Program-made: the position numbers and the translations under genes | Part shown: piece after piece, positions 2,119 through 33,868 of the stretch | Numbering within the stretch: the first letter of the stretch is position 1 | Layout of the letters: each line of letters begins with the position of its first letter | From: a virus | Taxonomy: Duplodnaviria > Heunggongvirae > Uroviricota > Caudoviricetes | DNA: 42,050 nt | Direction: 5' to 3' (one strand) | Virus record (IMG/VR): IMGVR_UViG_2609459854_000002 | Notes under the pieces: generated by a model | Seen by the model: the letters and a program-made list of their open reading frames with translations, nothing else | The model's database searches: none | Told to the model about the DNA's origin: nothing

Positions 2119-3915
2119 TTAGAACTCCTTCACATCTGCGCCAGAAGACACGCTCCAGATCGAAACAGGCGACCCGTTTACACCTATTAACCTTGCTTTC
2201 AACCCATTTCCGCTTGCTCTTGGTACGGTTAAATTTGCAACAGATGGATTTATAGCCCAATCTCCACCATTTAATATGACACTCATTTCAACTACGCCAC
2301 CATTATCAATATCTATTATAGGTGTTTGCACTACCGGGCTTTGTTGATCAATTGGCAGAAAGCCATTGACAATAATAGATGGTCTGAATGATGGGTTTCC
2401 CTGAACGCTAACACGAAGTTGCCCACCCTTAACAAATTCTGTTGCACAAGTATTCATGACAATGCAATACGGATTTACAAAATCAAATGCATAGCAAATT
2501 GACTCCCCATCCATTGGCGTGCAGTTTTCAGCAGTACAATTGGTCATGGTAGTATATTGCATTCCTGACATTCTAAATGACAACTGGTAACCGTTAACCT
2601 GAACAAGGCGCATATCCATAGAAGTGCCTATTACTTTTATTTGACCATCCCTAAAATCTTCAAATAAAACTCCAGCATATCCTTTCCCTGGATATTGTGG
2701 GAAACCGACCATTTCCATTACGCCAGAGAACGGCACATAAGAGAAGCATCCGATATAAGCACATTCAAAAATTGACTGTCTGATAACTGGTGCTGCTGAT
2801 TTTCCTAAAAACAGTCCGTAATAATTTCTATAAGAATCTACGTTTTCTTGTGTTAAGCCAAGCCTTCTAAACATGCAGTTTTCAACTCTACCGTTAACAC
2901 AAAATGAACTCATTGAGTTATCTGTTAGATCCCATTGCTTTGGTATAAAAGCACATAATGCATCCACCTGAAGAATTACTTCTCCATTTTTTGTGAGATC
3001 TATTTTGTCATTTGTTGTTTTATAAAAAACTGTCGCTTCAGCCTTTCCCTGTCCTCTAATTCCCATATTGTCATAAATTGGGATTGTTTTTGATGTATTT
3101 ATGTTTCCAGCAGGAGCCTCTAGAATGCATTTGTTTGAGCGGGCAAAGTTAGTTGCAAGAGTTATAGCTGTTGCGTTATCTGTGACTCCGTCAGGTTTCA
3201 CCCCCCAAAATTGCATGTCGTAAGTGGTAAAATTAATTCGTCTCCATACCATCGTTCCAGTTTCTGGCTTGATTACAATTCCACCATCATCAGCCCACGC
3301 CTGAATGTTATCAACAGACTCGAAAAAGCCGCCACCAAGGTGGTTTTCAGCATGTGTAGTGCTAGCTGCTGATGCTACGTATACAATCTGCCCCGCCTCC
3401 TCTGGAACACAGGAGCGAAGCTCTGAAAGATTGAGAAAGCGGCCAATAGCGTTAAATCCTGTTTTATCAATTAATGAATCATGTGTAGCTTTCAAGATCT
3501 CCAGCTCAATCTTTACGGTTGTGCCTCCATAACCAACCAGAGATGCGCCATCAGGGCCAGAAAGCTCAGCCCTTAACTGGTCTGGAGAATATTTCAGTAG
3601 ATCAGGATAATAGAATTGTTGTGCGCCATACGCATCATATACAGCCATGGAGTGATTCTGTACAGTTACGAACTTGGCAATCTGTCCGTTATATACCGGA
3701 TATCCAGCAGCGTTAATGATGATTGGTTGAGAAACAGGAACGTGCGAGCCGTCTTCGTTCTCTACATAAACCTGAATCTGGTTTTCTGGATTTACCGGGT
3801 CAGTGTCAACCTGACCGATATAAATTTTGCCATTGGCTACGGCTTTAAAAGAACGCGCCATAGTGAAGAGTTGCGAAGGCATCGATACGATCACATTGGC
3901 TGTAATGTCTGTCAT
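2119..3915 (-). CDS. Tailspike protein (P22 gp9-like head-binding domain, distinct receptor-binding body)
   Basis: 598-aa ORF; first ~110 residues ([59 protein letters not shown]...) closely match the P22 tailspike N-terminus as I recall it; the remainder does not match the P22 endorhamnosidase domain. Confidence 0.85.
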
Positions 3916-4015
3916 TTAATTTGCTCCAGATACAAGGAATCGCCGCAGCATGGCTACGGTGAATTTTGGGCATAAAAAAACCCAGCCGAAGCTGGGTCGT
4001 TGCGTTGGTTATCTG

Positions 4016-5964: not shown

Positions 5965-8124
5965 TTACTCCTGTGCCATTCCGCTTAGCGATGCCACAAT
6001 TCCAGCTCTTGCTAAACGCTGGAACCCTTCGTTTCCTAGTGCCTCGCGTATTGCTTTTACGGCGGCCTTATTTGCCATAAATCTGCGTTCCGCCGCCGCT
6101 AATGCTTCTTTACTTCCGCCTGCTCTTACTGCTTTGGTGGCTTCCTGAACAGCTTTCTCTATCGCATATCGGCCACTACGTGTGGTGGCAATTTTAGATA
6201 CAGCGCCTTTTAACCCAGCGCCAACTAAAGCACCCGCGGCAGCGCCTGCAATACCCCCTCCAGCGCCACCAACAATGGCACCTGATGTTGAGTTGGCAAT
6301 TGCATTTAACACTGTTGATGTGACGTTGGATAAACCAGCATCCAGATCGCGTAGTACATTGGCAGTTCTCCCTGTTCTTTCAATATACTGCTGAGGTTTC
6401 ACTGCTGCTCTTGCAAGAGTGCCATATGCATCAGCAATTCTTCCGAGTTCTGAGGAATATCTGCTAATGGCTTTTACATTTTGTGGGGTAAGTATCCTTG
6501 CGATATGGTTAATTCCTGCTGCATCAGCTTTGCCACCACGTACACCATGCGAGATAGCGTCTTGCAACATTGATGATATAGCAGGAACACGCTCTGATTC
6601 TGGCAGCGCGCGGATCATAGAATGGAATCCAGCAGGACCATTAAGACCTTTAGCTGACGATGATTGAAGGGATTTTACTCCATTCGTAATCAGTGCATCT
6701 GTTGCCAAATCACGCCCGAAAACAGACTCTGCACTCTCTTGTGCTGATAACCTCGCTTTAGACAGATCATTAGCTTTCTGCCAGTCATCAAGAAATCCGC
6801 CGTTTTCCGCCATTGTGCGCATATCATCAGTAATTGCCCGGCGTATTTCCCCTGCTCTCCTTGCCGCATTTGCCTCTCCGCTACGCTTATATTTTTGCTC
6901 CGCATCAGCAAATTTCGCTCTCCATGCTTTCATGCCATCAAATGTTACTCCACCTTGATTGTTTGCCTGAACAAACTGTTTCATTTCAGGAGTAAGCGGT
7001 ATGCCAGCAGATCGCTCTGCCTGAATAACGGCATTACCATTTAGCATTCTTGCTTTTTGATTTGGCATTGTTGACCGCACGTCATCCCATGCCGCGCGCT
7101 CGGCATCCTTCATCTGATCAAGATTTTGAAGAATCCTTTGTTTTATAGCCGCACTTTTTTCTGATGCCGTTCCAGATGCGGCCCCAAATTCATCAAGGTT
7201 TCGACTTAACTTTGATGATATTTCGTTAAATGCTGCCTGATGGGCGTCCTGAACAATTCCTGGTGTTGATGCCAATGCGCCTTCGGCTTGTGCAATTCCA
7301 CGACTTCCAGATCGCATTCCTGGTGTTAATGCGTTTATATCAATTCCAGCAGACTCAGCCGCTTTTGCTACATCTTCGGACACATTAGCAGCCTGACTGG
7401 CAATTGACTGACGCCCAGCACCTGACTTTGCCATCCTGGAAACATCATTAGCAGAATTCAGTGCTGTACCACCAAGAGCCTGTGAAACCCTTGGCGCAAT
7501 AACGCGCCCGACACCTGAAAGAACGCCTTGAGCACCAATATTGATACCACCGTTAATGGCAGCATTTTGTGCAAAATCGCCCTCCTGATTTGCAGCATCA
7601 GCAAGAGAACCTGCAATCATGTTTCCTGCGGAACCGATGTCTCCTGCGAGCTTTGCTGGCGCTCCAGCAGCTTTTGCCGCTGTGCCAATTGGCAGGAGAT
7701 ACCCACCAATTGTTTCACCGGCTTGCGCGTAAGGGTCTGTCGGTCGATCGACTGGACGATAGACATCATCCAATACTTTTGGCCCACCAAGCCCCTGACT
7801 GATTGCATTAATCAGACTTGCGCCACCCTGCAATACGTCAAATGGTATGTTTACCAGACCACGACCAGCCTGTTCTGCAATTTGCCCTGCACTTTGACCA
7901 CCAGTGAGCCAATCGCCAGCTTGTTGCATCAATGATGGTTCTTCTTTCTGCTGCTGAGGCGGAGGGTATGCTGCATAAAACTGATCTCTTGCTTCAGCCC
8001 ATTTGTCACCAGCCTTAGGGGCAACAACCTCATCAAAATATTGCGCTTGAGCCTGTGCTTTCTGTTCTTCAGTTAACGCCTGATACTGTGGAGAGGCGAT
8101 AACATCTTTCCATGCTTTAGCCAT
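5965..8124 (-). CDS. Ejection (DNA transfer) protein, P22 gp16-like
   Basis: 719-aa Ala/Gly/Gln-rich ORF at the end of the gp7-gp20-gp16 series; assignment by synteny and composition. Confidence 0.7.
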
Positions 8125-19236: not shown

Positions 19237-20739
19237 CTATCTTGTTGACCGTGCGATGGGCCTGATTGGGGCTGGTATCTTTTTCTCTTTTGGTTTTTTG
19301 ATGTCGCGCATCATTTTTGCGAAGCGGCGCATCATGTATGCATAGCGAACGGCGGAGAGAACGTCATCGTTAAGCTTGACGATTTTCCCGTTTTCATCAC
19401 GGTGATAGAGGCGGAACTCCTCAAAGAATGGCTCACAGGTGTTGAATACTTTGAAGCGGCCATCAAGCATCATGTCGCGCAATTCAGTGATTCCAGGCTC
19501 CACAGCATTACCGCCATCAGGCCATGTCGCATGCTCCTGCAACATCATAAAACCAGCGTCTGCATACTGCCCTTTGAGCTGCTCACCTCCGCCCTTCTCA
19601 TGCTGGTTTCCGTCATGAGGCCATGCGGTTGGCACTTTATGCGCCCATGATTTAACAGCTCCCCATGCCTGAACAGCTGTTTTTTCTTTCGCCTTCCACA
19701 CGCGTGAAACGTAGATTGTGTCTGCGTCCTTATCCCACCAAAGCTGAACCTGCGCCTGTGGGTGATCCCATCCGAAATCCATCCCGCCAATTACGTAGAA
19801 GTGATCAGGACACTCGAACGGCTGACACTTAATCGTCTCTTCCGGTATCTGGAAGATTCGACCACTACCCATCGTAGGAATACCGCGAGCACGCGCTTCT
19901 CTCTCATGCTCAGGATAGGATGCGATGATTTGCTCTTTCTGCTCGTCGGTGTAGTGCTCAGCGTCATAGATGGTCATGTTGACCACTTTCTGCGACTTGC
20001 TGGGATTCTTCAGGAACTTGGTAACAACGTCAGACATCCCCATCAGCGGGGTAAACGTCAGAATTGAGAATTGACCGTATTTGTTGGTACGGGTAAGACC
20101 TTCGCCATAAATGCTGTATGGTGGTTCTTCGTCAAACCACACGCCGTGGATTGTGTCACCCTGCCAGCGAGCACGGCCTTGCGAGTATGGTTTGAAGTAG
20201 CAGATTGAAATGCCATCTTCAACGCCATCAGCCGTGTGATGCTTAACCAGAAGATGATCAACAAGGTTCGGAAAGAAAGGAGACTTCTTCCAGCTAATGA
20301 TGTCCTCTTTCGGTATGGAACCGTAGCCTGGCTCATCATTCTCTTCGATACGACCGCACAGGATGCGTTGAGTCGTTTTGGTTACCGTCTCGTTTGTCTC
20401 GCCGCCAATCCAGAAGACAACAGGCTCATAGAAACGCTTACCTTTCCACTCCCCGCCATATTTACCATCAGCAGGATAGCCTTTTGTGCCCGGATAACGC
20501 CCGGTAAGGTGAAACGCGACTTCAGCAGCACCAGTAAATGACTTACCAAGCTGGTTACCAGCCATAAAACAGCGCTCTGGATAGTCATGCCCGGCGTCGA
20601 TGAACTCACGCTGTTTGCTGTATGGCGTAAATTCATATAGCAGGTGTGTGTTCCGGTAGTTCTCTTCTTCTTCGAGTAGCTCGAGCAATTCGATTTGCTC
20701 TTCGTCGCTCAGGTTATCAAGAATCGCGTCCAGTTCCAC
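19237..20739 (-). CDS. Terminase large subunit, P22 gp2-like
   Basis: 500-aa ORF immediately downstream of, and overlapping, the small subunit gene; size matches P22 gp2. Confidence 0.85.
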
Positions 20740-21205
20740 GGTTGAATAGCTCCTTGATACGAGAGCGTCGCTTATCGCGATCTCCCTTATCAGGTGTCAC
20801 GTCTTCAACTTGCGACTGCTCTTTGAGGCCCAAATCACGGGCGATGATGTTAGCGTTGAGAAGGTCAGCGGCTGCGCCAGAGAATTTCTGGTCGTAGATG
20901 ATGTCTTCCGCTCGTGATGTGACGTCAGAAAAACCTTCCATTGACCGGAAGGTTCCCCATGTTTGCCTGGTGATATCAAGGAAGGTACACAATCCTGAAA
21001 TAGTCATGGCTCGCATCTTAGGGACATTAGCCTTAATTATTTCTCCCTGATATGAAAATACCTTACCCTCCCATAGCGGGTTATCATCAGCCCACTCGAA
21101 GTATTCACAACAAGCAGCCCACAGCGCCTCAGGCGATTCGAATTTAGGGTTTCGCCCATGACTACTGCGGGCCTCCCAAAATCGGTTGCCCTTTGGTGCT
21201 GCCAT
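20717..21205 (-). CDS. Terminase small subunit, P22 gp3-like
   Basis: Sequence [38 protein letters not shown]... and C-terminus ...[24 protein letters not shown] match P22 gp3 as recalled. Confidence 0.85.
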
Positions 21206-21240
21206 ATTCATCTCACTTAATTGTTATTTCAGGTTGAGCA

Positions 21241-21483
21241 TCATGCTCCGGTAGTGAACAGGTCTAACGCTTCCTTAGATTTACGCACCGCTTCGAATGT
21301 GCGGATCGTGATATCCGAATTAGCGCCGCCTGACTGGAAGTGAATTTTGAATAGCTCAAGCTTCAGTTCGTCAGTGCCAATGAACTGAAATGCTTCTTCT
21401 GCGGCTGCGTTCTGGTTCATGACCAGTTTGTAAATCTCTAACTGGAATTTCTGTTCTTCAGTCATGGGAATAATCTCTGCCAT
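21241..21483 (-). CDS. Hypothetical small protein upstream of terminase
   Basis: 80-codon ORF, co-oriented with late genes; no family recognised. Confidence 0.45.
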   Translation of the reverse strand: MAEIIPMTEEQKFQLEIYKLVMNQNAAAEEAFQFIGTDELKLELFKIHFQSGGANSDITIRTFEAVRKSKEALDLFTTGA

Positions 21484-21629
21484 TGTTGGCTCCGTTTATC
21501 CGTTAAAAGGGATATCAGTTAAGTTATCCCGTGTAGGGTATAAGCCATTATCAAAGCCACTCTGTAGGGAATGGCTTTTGTGATGGCAATAAAAAAGGCC
21601 GACTTAGCGACCAATTTAATAATTAATTA

Positions 21630-21872
21630 TCAATAATGTGGGAATTGGTTACTATTTTGCAAGATAACCCAAGATGGGCGAAACAAGTCAAAAACATTGA
21701 TGCTTAACAGGGCTTCATTTATTGATTTTTTTTCATCCGCAGAAACTCCGCGTCCTGCATTTGACATTACAAGCTGACCATTAACTATTTCACTACATTG
21801 TTTTACATAACTACCTGGCGGCATTGATTGAAAGTTACATGTACCATTTATTATTTTATCAATTTCACTCAT
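21630..21872 (-). CDS. Hypothetical protein (AT-rich moron)
   Basis: 80-codon ORF in a visibly AT-rich block; GAGG 6 nt upstream of ATG; no family recognised. Confidence 0.4.
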   Translation of the reverse strand: MSEIDKIINGTCNFQSMPPGSYVKQCSEIVNGQLVMSNAGRGVSADEKKSINEALLSINVFDLFRPSWVILQNSNQFPHY

Positions 21873-22120
21873 ATCAACCTCGTCTAGTTGTTCGTCATAG
21901 ATTCAGTGGCTGGCGGTGACGATTCCGCTTTTCGGGAGCTACCCTAGCCACTGTTTTATTCTATCCGATGTCTTTCCATCAGTCCGCCACCACAAAGAAT
22001 CTTTTTTGCCATAAGGCAGGAGGTTCATCTTTCAGTGGCTGCCAGTGTTATTTCCCCACTTACTGGCTTGGGTTGTTTCGCGGTACTGCCGTAATGCAAG
22101 AACTGGATTAACCTGCGAAA

Positions 22121-22651
22121 TCACACCATTCCGGGCAAATACATTTGCACTTCATTTGCCGCTCTCTCACGTGCAACATGAAGCAATCTTTTTCGCCCAC
22201 CAACGCCCCACTTAGCCATTTGGCTTGCGCACTGGCTTATCGCTTTGGTTTCAGTATTGATGATGTGATCGATTCTATTCAGACGGGACATTGCGCCAAC
22301 GCCGAGACGGACAACCGTTTTGAAAACTTCATAAACTTCGATTTCAAATTCCGGCTTAATCCATGCTGCATATCTGATTGCCAGAAGTTCAACACCCCAC
22401 ACACCTGGTTCTGCACCACCTTTGATTATTTTAAGTGGTTGAATTTGTTCCAAAGTGCTTTTTTGCACTTTGGCCTCCAGTGCTTTTATGAAGCGTTTTA
22501 TCTGCGCGCTACGCAAAAACTGGCTTGGGCGCTGTTGCTCTGTAGCCTCTCCATTTGCAACTGCTGCTGCATGGAGATCGTTTAAGTTGTAGCGTCCATC
22601 CTCATCAACACGAACGGACACACCATTGACAATAACTGTTGGGTACTTCAT
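22121..22651 (-). CDS. KilA-N domain protein
   Basis: N-terminus MKYPTVIVNGVSVRVDEDGRYNLNDLHAAA resembles KilA-N DNA-binding domains; 176 aa. Confidence 0.55.
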   Translation of the reverse strand: MKYPTVIVNGVSVRVDEDGRYNLNDLHAAAVANGEATEQQRPSQFLRSAQIKRFIKALEAKVQKSTLEQIQPLKIIKGGAEPGVWGVELLAIRYAAWIKPEFEIEVYEVFKTVVRLGVGAMSRLNRIDHIINTETKAISQCASQMAKWGVGGRKRLLHVARERAANEVQMYLPGMV

Positions 22652-22796
22652 CAGTGATTACCTTTTAGTGATGAACCTTGTCACACAGGATTCCGGCCCA
22701 CAGAAAGGCACCGATCACCAAACCGGCATCCTCAAGGGTCATCCTGAAAGGTTCTGTGTTCAGAAGTCGCGCGTGTGAAGCGCGTTTGTTGCAGAT

Positions 22797-22822
22797 ATAA
22801 AAAAGCCCCGCGAATGCGAGGC
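22797..22822 (-). terminator. Rho-independent terminator downstream of the lysis cassette
   Basis: Minus-strand hairpin GCCTCGC attc GCGGGGC (7-bp stem, one G-U pair) followed by UUUUUU. Confidence 0.55.
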
Positions 22823-22996
22823 TAAATCCTGGTGTTTGTGATGACTGGCTCTTATCTCAACGCAGCCCCTTACCGCGCGCCATATGCTCAATATCAAGCA
22901 TCAGCAATGAGATGTTTAATCTGGATTCACTCCAGAAGTGATCATCACCCTGTCTACAGAGCCAGATGTGAATGATGATGAGTAAAATTATCGCTA

Positions 22997-23455
22997 TCAT
23001 CGAAGGCATTGCGTCCTGATGTATTCCTGCAGGTAGTTAACCTGCGCGGTTATCCTGTCGATTCCACTTCGGAGACGGTAATAATTGAGTTCAGCATCTG
23101 CTGTAAGTCTTGGGCTTTCTCCATCGCCCATGCTGCTGGCTCCGGTCGTTGACTTTGCACAGGTGGCGGCGACTTGCAGGCGCTTACGACCAGCAGAAAC
23201 ATCAGCACGGAGACTTTCGATAGTCGCATTAGCATCAGCAAGCTCCTTTGTGTATCTGGCGTCAAGTTCTGCAACATCACGCTGACGCTGCTGCATGTCA
23301 GCGATGGTGGCGGTCGCCTGCTTCAGCTCACTGACTTTTTTATCACGCTGTTCTTTGTAGGCGATGGCGTTATCACGGTAATGATTAACACCCCATGACA
23401 GGCAGACGACGATGCAGATAACCAGAGCGGAGATAATCGCGGTTACTCTGTTCAT
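22997..23455 (-). CDS. Rz: Rz i-spanin
   Basis: [34 protein letters not shown]... closely matches lambda Rz as recalled; start placed at ATG adjacent to endolysin stop. Confidence 0.85.
23050..23229 (-). CDS. Rz1: Rz1 o-spanin lipoprotein (embedded in Rz, +1 frame)
   Basis: Embedded ORF with signal/lipobox-like [10 protein letters not shown] followed by Pro-rich segment [13 protein letters not shown]; start approximate. Confidence 0.7.
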
Positions 23456-23955
23456 TGCTGACCCCACAAACAGATTTCACGCTCAATCTCACGACGAGTC
23501 ATGAGACCTTTCCATTGCTTACCGCCAGCATATGTCCAGCGACGTAGCTGATCACATGCGCCTTTGATATCGCCCTGGTTTATTTTGCGAAGAAGCGTCG
23601 ATGTTCTGAAATTGCCAGCACCCACGTTGTAAACGAATGAGTAAAGAGCGCCGCGCATTGTTTCCGGTATATCGACTTTGATGTACGGGTTAATTTGTCT
23701 GGCGACCGTGGCAAGGTCTTTATTCAGGAGAGCTTTGCATTCTGCTTCGGTATACGTTTTACCGAGCATGATGTCTTTTCCTGTATGCCCGTAACATACA
23801 GTCCATACACCAACTATGTCTTTGTAAGGATTATGTCTCACACCTTCCAGACCATCGTTACCACTTGGGCCAGTGATTAACACAGATGCTATAGCAATAG
23901 CCCCGCCACTTATCGCCGCTATTACGCTATTTCGTAGTGCCGGTGACATTGCCAT
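23452..23955 (-). CDS. SAR endolysin (lysozyme, phage 21 R-like)
   Basis: N-terminal signal-anchor-release segment [19 protein letters not shown] and body ...[29 protein letters not shown]... match P21-type lysozyme as recalled. Confidence 0.85.
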
Positions 23956-24130
23956 TCAATCTGTCCTCGCGCTCTTTGCGCTTGTAGTACCAGTTGATGC
24001 CAAATGTGCCGACAGTACAAAGAATACCAATGATGACAGCCCAGTCATTCAGGGAGAGAATGCCACCCATCGCAGTCAGTCCTCCGAAGCTGTAACTGAA
24101 CCATTCTCTGATTTTGTCCATACGGTACAT
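23927..24130 (-). CDS. Holin (class II / pinholin-like) with possible dual start
   Basis: 67-aa ORF with two hydrophobic segments and a basic C-terminus; N-terminal MYRMDK offers two Met starts typical of holin/antiholin pairs; overlaps endolysin start. Confidence 0.75.
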
Positions 24131-24374: not shown

Positions 24375-24450
24375 TGGTGCTGGTTAACGGACTTGAACCG
24401 CTACCCATTCGCTTACAAGGCGACTGCTCTACCATTGGAGCTAAACCAGC
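24375..24450 (-). tRNA. tRNA, anticodon UGU (Thr) by manual fold
   Basis: Minus-strand sequence GCTGGTTTAGCTCCAATGGTAGAGCAGTCGCCTTGTAAGCGAATGGGTAGCGGTTCAAGTCCGTTAACCAGCACCA folds as a cloverleaf with 7-bp acceptor stem, canonical D and T arms, encoded CCA. Anticodon call made by hand. Confidence 0.6.
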
Positions 24451-24455
24451 ATATT

Positions 24456-24530
24456 TGGCGGGACAGCGTGGACTCGAACCACGATAAGAAGGTTAACAGC
24501 CTTCCGTAATGACCTTTATACGACTGACCC
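24456..24530 (-). tRNA. tRNA, anticodon GUU (Asn) by manual fold
   Basis: Minus-strand sequence ending ...CGTGGTTCGAGTCCACGCTGTCCCGCCA with perfect anticodon stem GAAGG/CCTTC and loop CUGUUAA; one mismatch in acceptor stem and an imperfect D stem. Confidence 0.5.
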
Positions 24531-33685: not shown

Positions 33686-33742
33686 ATACCAATAACGCTT
33701 CACTCGAGGCGTTTTTAGTTATGCATAAATAAGGATCACACC

Positions 33743-33868
33743 ATGCAATATGCCATTGCAGGGTGGCCTGTTGCTGGCTGCCCTTCCGAATCTTTACTTG
33801 AACGAATCACCCGTAAATTACGTGACGGATGGAAAAGAGTTGAGGTCTTATTATGCGCAATGAAATAG
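33743..33868 (+). CDS. cIII: CIII-like protein (FtsH inhibitor), C-terminally divergent
   Basis: MQYAIAGWPVAGCPSESLLERITRKLRDGWKR matches the lambda CIII N-terminus as recalled; 41 codons, not in track because under 60 aa. Confidence 0.7.
   Translation: MQYAIAGWPVAGCPSESLLERITRKLRDGWKRVEVLLCAMK

Follow-up and report, generated by a model that had tools for sequence, protein, structure and literature searches.

What is the inverted repeat that lies between a KilA-N domain gene and an AT-rich orphan gene in the late region of a P22-like prophage, and at which level would it act? The DNA in question is the IMG/VR virus record IMGVR_UViG_2609459854_000002, a stretch of 42,050 nucleotides (nt) that is referred to here as the window; the element itself is a P22-like (Lederbergvirus) prophage near Escherichia coli phage IME10. 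An earlier note on positions 21,630 to 22,120 had pointed to an 80-codon open reading frame (ORF) preceded by inverted repeats and had suggested that the latter could be a small RNA or a regulatory site. The observation as a whole is confirmed by our analysis, and the interpretation is partly supported. The repeat is stem P1 of the int-alpA RNA (Rfam RF02996), a three-way junction encoded at 21892-21954 on the minus strand, and this RNA is probably a cis-acting leader that gates translation of the gene that follows it, in this case the orphan gene ORF80.

The inverted repeat and the int-alpA RNA family

The two arms of the repeat, CAGTGGCT at 21904-21911 and AGCCACTG at 21946-21953 (plus-strand reading), were found within 2 nt of the positions first given for them. 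The 8-mer by itself is weakly unusual, with four copies in the window against 1.36 expected, a count reached in 3 of 100 shuffles; the structure closed by CAGTGGCT and AGCCACTG is far beyond chance according to its covariance-model scores. The Rfam model of int-alpA aligned to 21892-21954 (minus strand) with 42.0 bits (E = 1.7e-5 for the whole window; gathering cut-off 35.8 bits), covering model positions 1-71 of 71, and this was the sole such match in the window. A covariance model of our own, built on 91 relatives, likewise returned one copy (55.8 bits, E = 2e-13), and the minimum-free-energy fold yields the same three-way junction. The repeat, which had been taken for an unrecognised structure, is thus part of an existing family.

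Read on the minus strand, P1 is formed by 21953-21947 and 21910-21904, P2 by 21944-21942 and 21936-21934, and P3 by 21928-21925 and 21916-21913; the joining strand J2/3 (GAAAA) occupies 21933-21929, and the P3 loop, AAUCGUCA, spans 21924-21917. The three-stem junction with CUAG, CGAAAAG and CCGCC-U-G is present, an A for U in J3/1 being the lone deviation. The neighbours are a KilA-N gene and ORF80 in a late operon instead of integrase and alpA, a context that is a tendency of the family and no requirement of the model. Other assignments of the junction were rejected. Its joining strands of 2, 5 and 2 nt compare by eye with 7, 3 and 1 nt in the hammerhead core, which speaks against a ribozyme, and no other Rfam family was matched. 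A tRNA-like RNA or an RNase P substrate was discarded on the finding of no conserved tail after P1 among 76 members, and a terminator after P1 on that of a T-rich tail in 19 of these 76, the window copy not among them.

Family loci were fished with a pattern derived from the Rfam consensus, which gave more than 120 loci from viral contigs and more than 120 from species-representative genomes. About half of the raw bacterial-genome matches were due to chance, which is in line with a search for 19 fixed bases in 596 Gb; a filter for the presence of P1 eliminated them. RF02996 was recovered at gathering level in 16 of 20 tested loci, among them loci in metagenome-assembled genomes labelled Planctomycetota, Methylomirabilales, Candidatus Eisenbacteria, Nitrospirae, Chitinophaga (Bacteroidota), Terriglobia (Acidobacteriota) and Chloroflexota. 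Covariation across relatives, a check that had been proposed together with the original observation, was scored for the three helices on a plain MAFFT alignment of 91 sequences, and compensatory pairing proved to be well above the level of shuffles. Standard pairs make up 86.5% of cells; the figure falls to 62.8% for shuffled sequences and to 34-44% after sliding of the 3' partners. In addition, 408 cells are altered on both sides, versus 146 in shuffles; none of 500 shuffles reached the observed value. For instance, four contigs with homologues of ORF80 (L126-129) have P3 as GAGUU/AACUC in place of GCGG/CCGC, a fully compensatory exchange. The junction nucleotides CUAG, CGAAAAG and CCGCC-N-G are invariant across phyla.

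A same-strand ORF starts at a median distance of 31 nt after P1, mostly 25-40 nt, in 51 of the 52 non-redundant viral instances. The downstream proteins are highly diverse (81 inspected) and include DUF6387, DUF1376 replication proteins and Dam methyltransferases, HNH, EndoVII, GIY-YIG and NUMOD endonucleases, as well as Rha, DUF551, ParB-methyltransferase, resolvase and many unknowns. The AlpA family accounts for 0 of these 81 proteins, and a link to AlpA is therefore unsupported in this sample. On the upstream side, the nearest ORF encodes a tyrosine integrase in 22 of 47 bacterial-genome cases, usually co-oriented, which explains the name of the family. At a dozen island loci (L138, L141, L148, L177, L187, L195, L215, L220, L241 and others), a co-oriented gene for a P4-type tyrosine integrase precedes P1 so closely that 2-13 nt separate its last sense codon from the stem, a distance within the reach of the terminating ribosome. 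This arrangement suggests that translation of the integrase may be coupled to the int-alpA fold in islands.

Pairings of the P3 loop and proposed control of translation

In the family sample the P3 loop (8-11 nt, C-rich and G-poor) is complementary to two downstream sites, and both of them precede ORF80 on the minus strand of the window. Site 1 (UGACGA, 21892-21897) is the predicted decoy for the loop, with 6 base pairs (bp) and -7.5 kcal/mol. The hairpin P4 (CAACU/GGUUG, 21875-21890), seen in minimum-free-energy folds and in the family statistics, carries in its loop and 3' stem both site 2 (GACGA, 21884-21880; 5 bp with the P3 loop, -7.1 kcal/mol) and the overlapping Shine-Dalgarno (SD) sequence GAGG (21881-21878), ahead of the AUG of ORF80 at 21872. 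For comparison, pairing of this SD sequence with the 16S anti-SD amounts to -6.6 kcal/mol.

The loop pairings were evaluated on 76 distinct loops, taken from non-redundant relatives in phages and in bacteria of many phyla, against a null in which loops were permuted among sequences. The longest unbroken run of pairs between the P3 loop and the segment from P1 to the SD window equals 5.54 nt, versus 3.78 +/- 0.10 after permutation, and its run with the 16-nt SD window equals 5.61 nt, versus 4.53 +/- 0.11 (z = 9.8). Mean duplex energies are -7.0 kcal/mol for site 1 (-3.2 permuted) and -8.2 kcal/mol for the SD window (-5.4 permuted). The median spacing from P1 to the beginning of site 1 is 8 nt, and in 51 of the 76 cases neither pairing is shorter than 5 bp. 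Sequences with a strong site-1 duplex tend to have a strong SD-window duplex as well (rho 0.38, p = 7e-4); the median gap between the two energies is 1.8 kcal/mol, and site 1 is the stronger partner 34 times, the SD window 39 times. Site 2 is usually found in the loop of a P4 hairpin of 4-7 bp, with 0-5 nt left between this hairpin and the start codon. Within the 30 nt that precede this codon, the mean length of the longest stem is 5.55 bp, versus 4.67 in shuffles (p = 7e-8), and pairing between the P3 and P4 loops stands at 4.37, versus 3.33 +/- 0.08. Control permutations were flat (z from -1.6 to 0.3) for the P2 hairpin against its flanks and for the P3 loop against the upstream 60 nt or the first 60 nt of the ORF; on these tests, we rejected an additional antisense role for the P2 loop as well as P3-loop pairing upstream or within the ORF.

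Two near-isoenergetic and mutually exclusive pairings that co-vary with one loop look like a regulated switch, and we consider it probable that the int-alpA leader is a cis-acting two-state gate on translation of the following gene. With the P3 loop on site 1, forming a pseudoknot that abuts P4, the SD sequence would be exposed in the P4 loop and translation would be on; with the P3 loop on site 2 in the P4 loop, as a kissing complex, the SD sequence would be buried and translation would be off. The invariant junction nucleotides would be the place where an input acts. Candidate inputs are a small molecule or ligand, a host or element protein and, for the integrase-linked copies, ribosomes terminating just upstream. 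A gene-specific small-molecule input is unlikely because of the diversity of the cargo.

Several points weigh against such a gate. It is built wholly on computation, from which we infer the P3-loop pairings in vivo, the switching, the default state and the trigger, and the two near-isoenergetic alternatives are the whole ground for speaking of a switch. The P4 signal is modest, with a stem of at least 5 bp in 83% of cases versus 58% in ORF-internal controls. The search pattern fixes the junctions and P3, so that only part of the family was compared; the assignment of start codons was heuristic; and the z-scores are inflated by related sequences, though many unrelated loops show the same effect. 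As for transcription, promoter-like signals in the window are weak (-10 box 5/6, -35 box 3/6), the -10-like hexamer TAGAAT (21958-21963, minus strand), 4 nt upstream of P1, was not reported by a generic promoter scan, and in some relatives what precedes the motif is a terminator or the stop codon of an integrase gene and not a promoter. In addition, the Rfam type of int-alpA is 'Gene; sRNA'.

This Rfam type favours a different explanation, in which int-alpA is a trans-acting or dual-function small RNA that is released by termination or processing and whose P3 loop pairs with the ribosome-binding site (RBS) regions of its targets. Among these targets would be the gene directly downstream of it and copies carried by co-resident or superinfecting elements, as for P1/P7 c4, P4 CI RNA and Gifsy-1 IsrK. 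A terminal stem with hairpins and a loop complementary to an RBS region of the same transcript parallels CI RNA and IsrK (PMC4825925). The T-rich tract right after P1 in the 19 members mentioned above could terminate a short isoform, and one P22-like phage contig, L127, has two copies whose loop and site code agree. However, the U-tract is absent from the window copy, neither a conserved tail nor an RNase P-type CCA is seen after P1, no C4 family match was obtained in 601 nt at E up to 10, and no complementary site exists upstream (z = 0.3), unlike seqA or a1/b1. Moreover, the fixed distance of ~31 nt to a same-strand ORF (51/52) is the prediction for a leader and not for a free-standing gene. 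While a trans-acting or dual role is compatible with the cis model, we judge it unlikely, and the cis translational gate fits better than the 'sRNA' label. Of the two possibilities first proposed for the repeat, action at the RNA level and of a regulatory kind is upheld, and the family evidence favours a cis leader over a free-standing small RNA.

A leader could also be structural and constitutive, without any switching. The junction would then protect the 5' end of the mRNA from decay, the pseudoknot and P4 would present the SD sequence independently of context, and a mobile gene would be expressed wherever it is inserted. The position of the SD sequence in a hairpin loop and the very diverse cargo in varied genomic contexts agree with such a role, and so does the enrichment of -10-like hexamers (at least 5/6) at 3-7 nt upstream of P1, seen in about one third of the 52 viral members, where transcription would start at or close to the 5' end of P1. 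It leaves unexplained, however, why the SD region co-varies with the P3 loop (z = 9.8) besides site 1, why the two pairings are near-isoenergetic and correlated, and why the junction is invariant across phyla, and we regard it as quite improbable. The possibility that the element works as DNA, as a recombination or cassette-boundary site like integron attC, would account for cargo exchange at this position: exchange junctions are located at the leader ends, a fossil half-copy lies 129 nt upstream, and in bacterial genomes the motif often stands directly after a tyrosine integrase gene. Yet these are P4-type island integrases at tRNA-linked att sites and not cassette integrases, and a DNA-level role is made very unlikely by the strict orientation and spacing to the downstream start codon, by a complementarity to the SD sequence that is meaningful in RNA only, and by the G-U pairs of P1, which allow the fold on one strand only.

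The cargo slot and its genes

The genes around the feature, which belong to the late region, are all on the minus strand. The KilA-N domain gene (22121-22651; Pfam KilA-N E = 7e-18) is the upstream neighbour; it is followed by a non-coding stretch (21873-22120), by ORF80 (21630-21872), an orphan cargo gene, and by a terminator-like hairpin with a U-run just 3' of ORF80 (21587-21612, pattern scan). The DUF2560 gene (21241-21483; Pfam E = 3e-42) is the conserved downstream anchor of the slot, with TerS (20717-21211) and TerL (19237-20739) beyond it. The placement of ORF80 between the lysis region and terminase, as originally described, is therefore borne out.

Comparison with related phages divides the slot into four modules (blastn boundaries): a non-coding upstream module (21967-22094, minus strand); the -10-like TAGAAT with the int-alpA leader (21875-21964, minus strand), 99.5% identical to prophages carrying DUF551 cargo; ORF80-specific DNA (21613-21874); and a downstream flank including the terminator-like site (21440-21612), which is common to DUF551 cassettes. 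That this position is a cargo slot was likewise proposed earlier, and the relatives agree. It is empty in Salmonella phage ST104, where DUF2560 comes directly after KilA-N, and it is occupied by gp66 in Sf6 and Huey, by a DUF551 gene in many E. coli prophages and by ORF80 in 15 of 5426 complete E. coli genomes, 1121 of which contain the block 21875-22095. An identical leader is joined at the start codon either to ORF80 or to the DUF551 gene (gacgaggttg/atATG versus gacgaggttg/tgATG, the stroke marking the joint). Homologues of ORF80 also occupy a second cargo slot of the late operon, located between Q/tR' and holin (contigs L126-129), and there too they carry an int-alpA leader, directly after the terminator. 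The slot comparison and the presence of the leader with ORF80 homologues in both slots indicate that the leader is part of what moves.

On the basis of these alignments, 21613-21964 (minus strand) appears to be a mobile gene cassette, or moron, of the late operon that consists of the -10-like box, the int-alpA junction, an expression platform of ~32 nt and ORF80. The -10-like box lies on the cassette side of the recombination boundary (~21964), and the cassette transcript would end at the terminator in the shared flank. Both presence or absence at the same position among close relatives and a deviant base composition, as known for morons, were observed.

Two of the related contigs show variants of this arrangement. 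In L127, there are two int-alpA leaders, at 3914-3970 and 6212-6267, one after tR' before an ORF80 homologue and the other before a DUF551 gene. Loop (AUCGUCA) and site 1 (UGACGA) are identical in both leaders, site 2 is one base apart, and the P1, P2 and P3 stems differ. In L125, a degraded leader of 26 bits (3916-3971) precedes an ORF80 homologue in the same slot. The 5' strand of its P1 is replaced, its P3 is ACGG, and it is placed behind a perfect TATAAT; it may be a decaying leader or a promoter swap. L125 also has an above-cut-off match to Rfam isrJ (Hfq-binding RNA) at 1323-1401, just downstream of the Q gene.

ORF80 has a G+C content of 34.6%, compared to 46.9% for the window and 46-50% for neighbouring genes, and no Pfam or PHROG family match was found for it, in agreement with its first description as an AT-rich ORF of no recognisable family. 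Its relatives form 6 clusters only among 5.8 billion proteins. For two homologues with 73-75% identity, the ratio of nonsynonymous to synonymous divergence (dN/dS) is 0.17-0.21 at dS 0.75-0.88, which places the frame under purifying selection; ORF80 is hence a real gene. The AlphaFold model consists of four helices at low confidence (pLDDT 65), and Foldseek returned no match for the predicted fold. A profile search of 1.8 billion representatives gave weak matches only, to Cys-containing repeats of ~41 amino acids in giant surface proteins. Residues 4-49 (IDKIINGTCNFQSMPPGSYVKQCSEIV) weakly resemble these repeats (IDKA..TCT..GLTEGSHCSVC.EIL), which are found in giant dockerin- or CARDB-bearing proteins; the HCxxC part is absent from ORF80. 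Assignment of a function from this likeness was rejected, as the matches are too weak.

A third copy of the 8-mer, CAGTGGCT(G) at 22033-22041, had been regarded as a further long-range partner of the repeat; it lies outside the structure. The 17-mer TTCAGTGGCTGGCGGTG (21902-21918) is repeated with 2 mismatches at 22031-22047, where 0.01 copies are expected, so that the second copy is not due to chance. This partial copy of the 3' half of the motif (CACUGGCAGCCACUGAA, minus strand), with the second CAGTGGCTG, agrees in 15 of 17 nt with the P3-3'/J3-1/P1-3' segment. It is located within the upstream module, which is 96-99% identical in the empty-slot phage (ST104) and in phages with other cargo (Sf6, Huey) and is thus also found in phages that lack the motif. 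We read the copy as a relic of an earlier leader. A second full motif at ~22036 was rejected, since the covariance model yields one copy only, and so was competition of the fossil copy with P1 in read-through transcripts, since a 266-nt fold retains the junction and P4 while the fossil pairs locally. Significant structure was not found in the region 21955-22125 (fold z = -1.5), and the upstream module would contribute only a weak -35 box (cgGACt, 3/6, 21986-21981, as read from the sequence).

Two further features overlap this part of the slot. A sub-threshold match to Rfam Proteo-phage-1 (RF03044) at 22037-22108 (minus strand) overlaps the partial copy. Membership in that family was rejected at 18 bits against a cut-off of 42 (E = 1.1), with its stems unsupported and the alignment limited to the single-stranded consensus stretches AAGCCAGUAAGUG and GAAAUAACACUGGCAGCC. 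The 3' stretch resembles the P3-3'/P1-3' segment of int-alpA, and for this reason the two families may share ancestry or adjacency. A 29-codon ORF (MNLLPYGKKDSLWWRTDGKTSDRIKQWLG), read from the sequence at 21938-22027 (minus strand), crosses the upstream module and reaches the P2 loop of the motif; in phage Huey, a short ORF at the equivalent place is annotated as a hypothetical protein. The 29-codon ORF is probably not a gene.

Further upstream in the late region, genes for tRNA-Thr(UGU) and tRNA-Asn(GUU) (24375-24530, minus strand) separate the Q antiterminator region from holin, an arrangement shared with Sf6 and phage 21; their position is that of the second late-operon cargo slot described above. 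They are followed on the same strand by holin (23927-24130), lysozyme (23452-23955) and Rz (22997-23467). The KilA-N position is variable, being taken by Rha, GIY-YIG or a small ORF in related prophages. A strong terminator-like hairpin (22804-22823, minus strand; 8 pairs, 6 of them G-C, then TTTTT) lies within the ~345-nt non-coding gap between Rz and KilA-N (22660-22996), and in view of this hairpin the KilA-N gene itself may be a separately inserted cassette. Elsewhere in the window, Rfam Lambda_thermo, the phage lambda cIII thermoregulator element, was matched at 33730-33788 (plus strand) with 80 bits, well above cut-off, which makes it a second known translational RNA switch within the same prophage.

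Relation to known systems

The motif instance is not new, being a bona fide member of RF02996, and the locus itself is ordinary. The family is said to go back to Weinberg et al. in 2017, as a candidate structured RNA from comparative genomics. Discussion of int-alpA was not found in the main text of Weinberg 2017 (supplements were outside the search), and in the searchable literature the name 'int-alpA' was encountered only as a table entry in one paper. Judging by the Rfam typing and this literature, the family-level architecture of loop, decoy and SD sequence, the reading as a cis leader and the multi-phylum range appear to be undescribed.

A broader proposal can be put forward tentatively, as one that is possible but that we would not expect to hold. 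In this proposal, int-alpA would be a widespread class of cis riboregulators instead of a niche enterobacterial sRNA, a bistable translational gate whose junction senses a universal input and which controls the first gene of mobile cassettes and islands. As input, one may think of a ligand, of a host factor or of ribosomes that finish translation at an integrase stop codon 0-10 nt upstream, and the genes under control would include homing-endonuclease-like, methyltransferase and replication genes. Acting in trans, on the model of P4 CI RNA, the RNA might fill the role of the missing repressor or immunity factor where an island has no protein repressor. Through the family-level result on loop, decoy and SD sequence, an orphan "sRNA candidate" becomes a mutation-testable hypothesis, that of a portable translational gate for horizontally moving genes, and a defined leader is offered for studying how morons and island genes are silenced and switched on. 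The family-level hypothesis is of moderate interest and is testable.

With RF02996 as defined by Rfam, the window copy shares the full-model match, the three-stem junction and the junction nucleotides. It differs in its location in a late operon before an orphan cargo gene, not between integrase and alpA, and in a downstream platform (site 1, P4 and SD sequence) that is outside the Rfam model. The morons of lambdoid phages are additional genes that come with a promoter and a terminator of their own and have been inserted among conserved genes (Hendrix and colleagues). The ORF80 cassette resembles them in being present or absent at a fixed slot, in its deviant composition, and in having a terminator-like hairpin after it and a promoter-like box before it. 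In contrast to them, its putative promoter is weak, and the cassette includes a structured RNA leader that is common to unrelated cargo genes.

The c4 RNA of P1/P7 is a same-transcript antisense regulator of the same type as P4 CI RNA. In P4 CI RNA (seqB versus seqA and seqC) and in Gifsy-1 IsrK, a loop of the leader RNA is complementary to sites on the same transcript, one of them at an RBS (PMC4825925). Common to these systems and int-alpA are a structured operon-leader RNA, a loop complementary to two sites, one at the next RBS, and the residence on mobile elements. In contrast, no sequence or covariance-model relationship connects them: the C4 model gave no match, and the upstream complementarity and conserved 3' tail that would place int-alpA among C4- or CI-type RNAs are lacking. 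Both of its target sites are downstream and none is upstream, and its output is probably translation rather than termination.

SD-sequestering riboswitches and translational pseudoknots, such as preQ1-II, SAM-II, the IncI repZ activator pseudoknot and the rpsO operator, provide the other comparison. Although the genes downstream of int-alpA have no shared function, which is unusual for a metabolite riboswitch, the likeness to these systems is one of design: a conserved junction fold is coupled to a loop-to-tail pairing that would decide the accessibility of the SD sequence.

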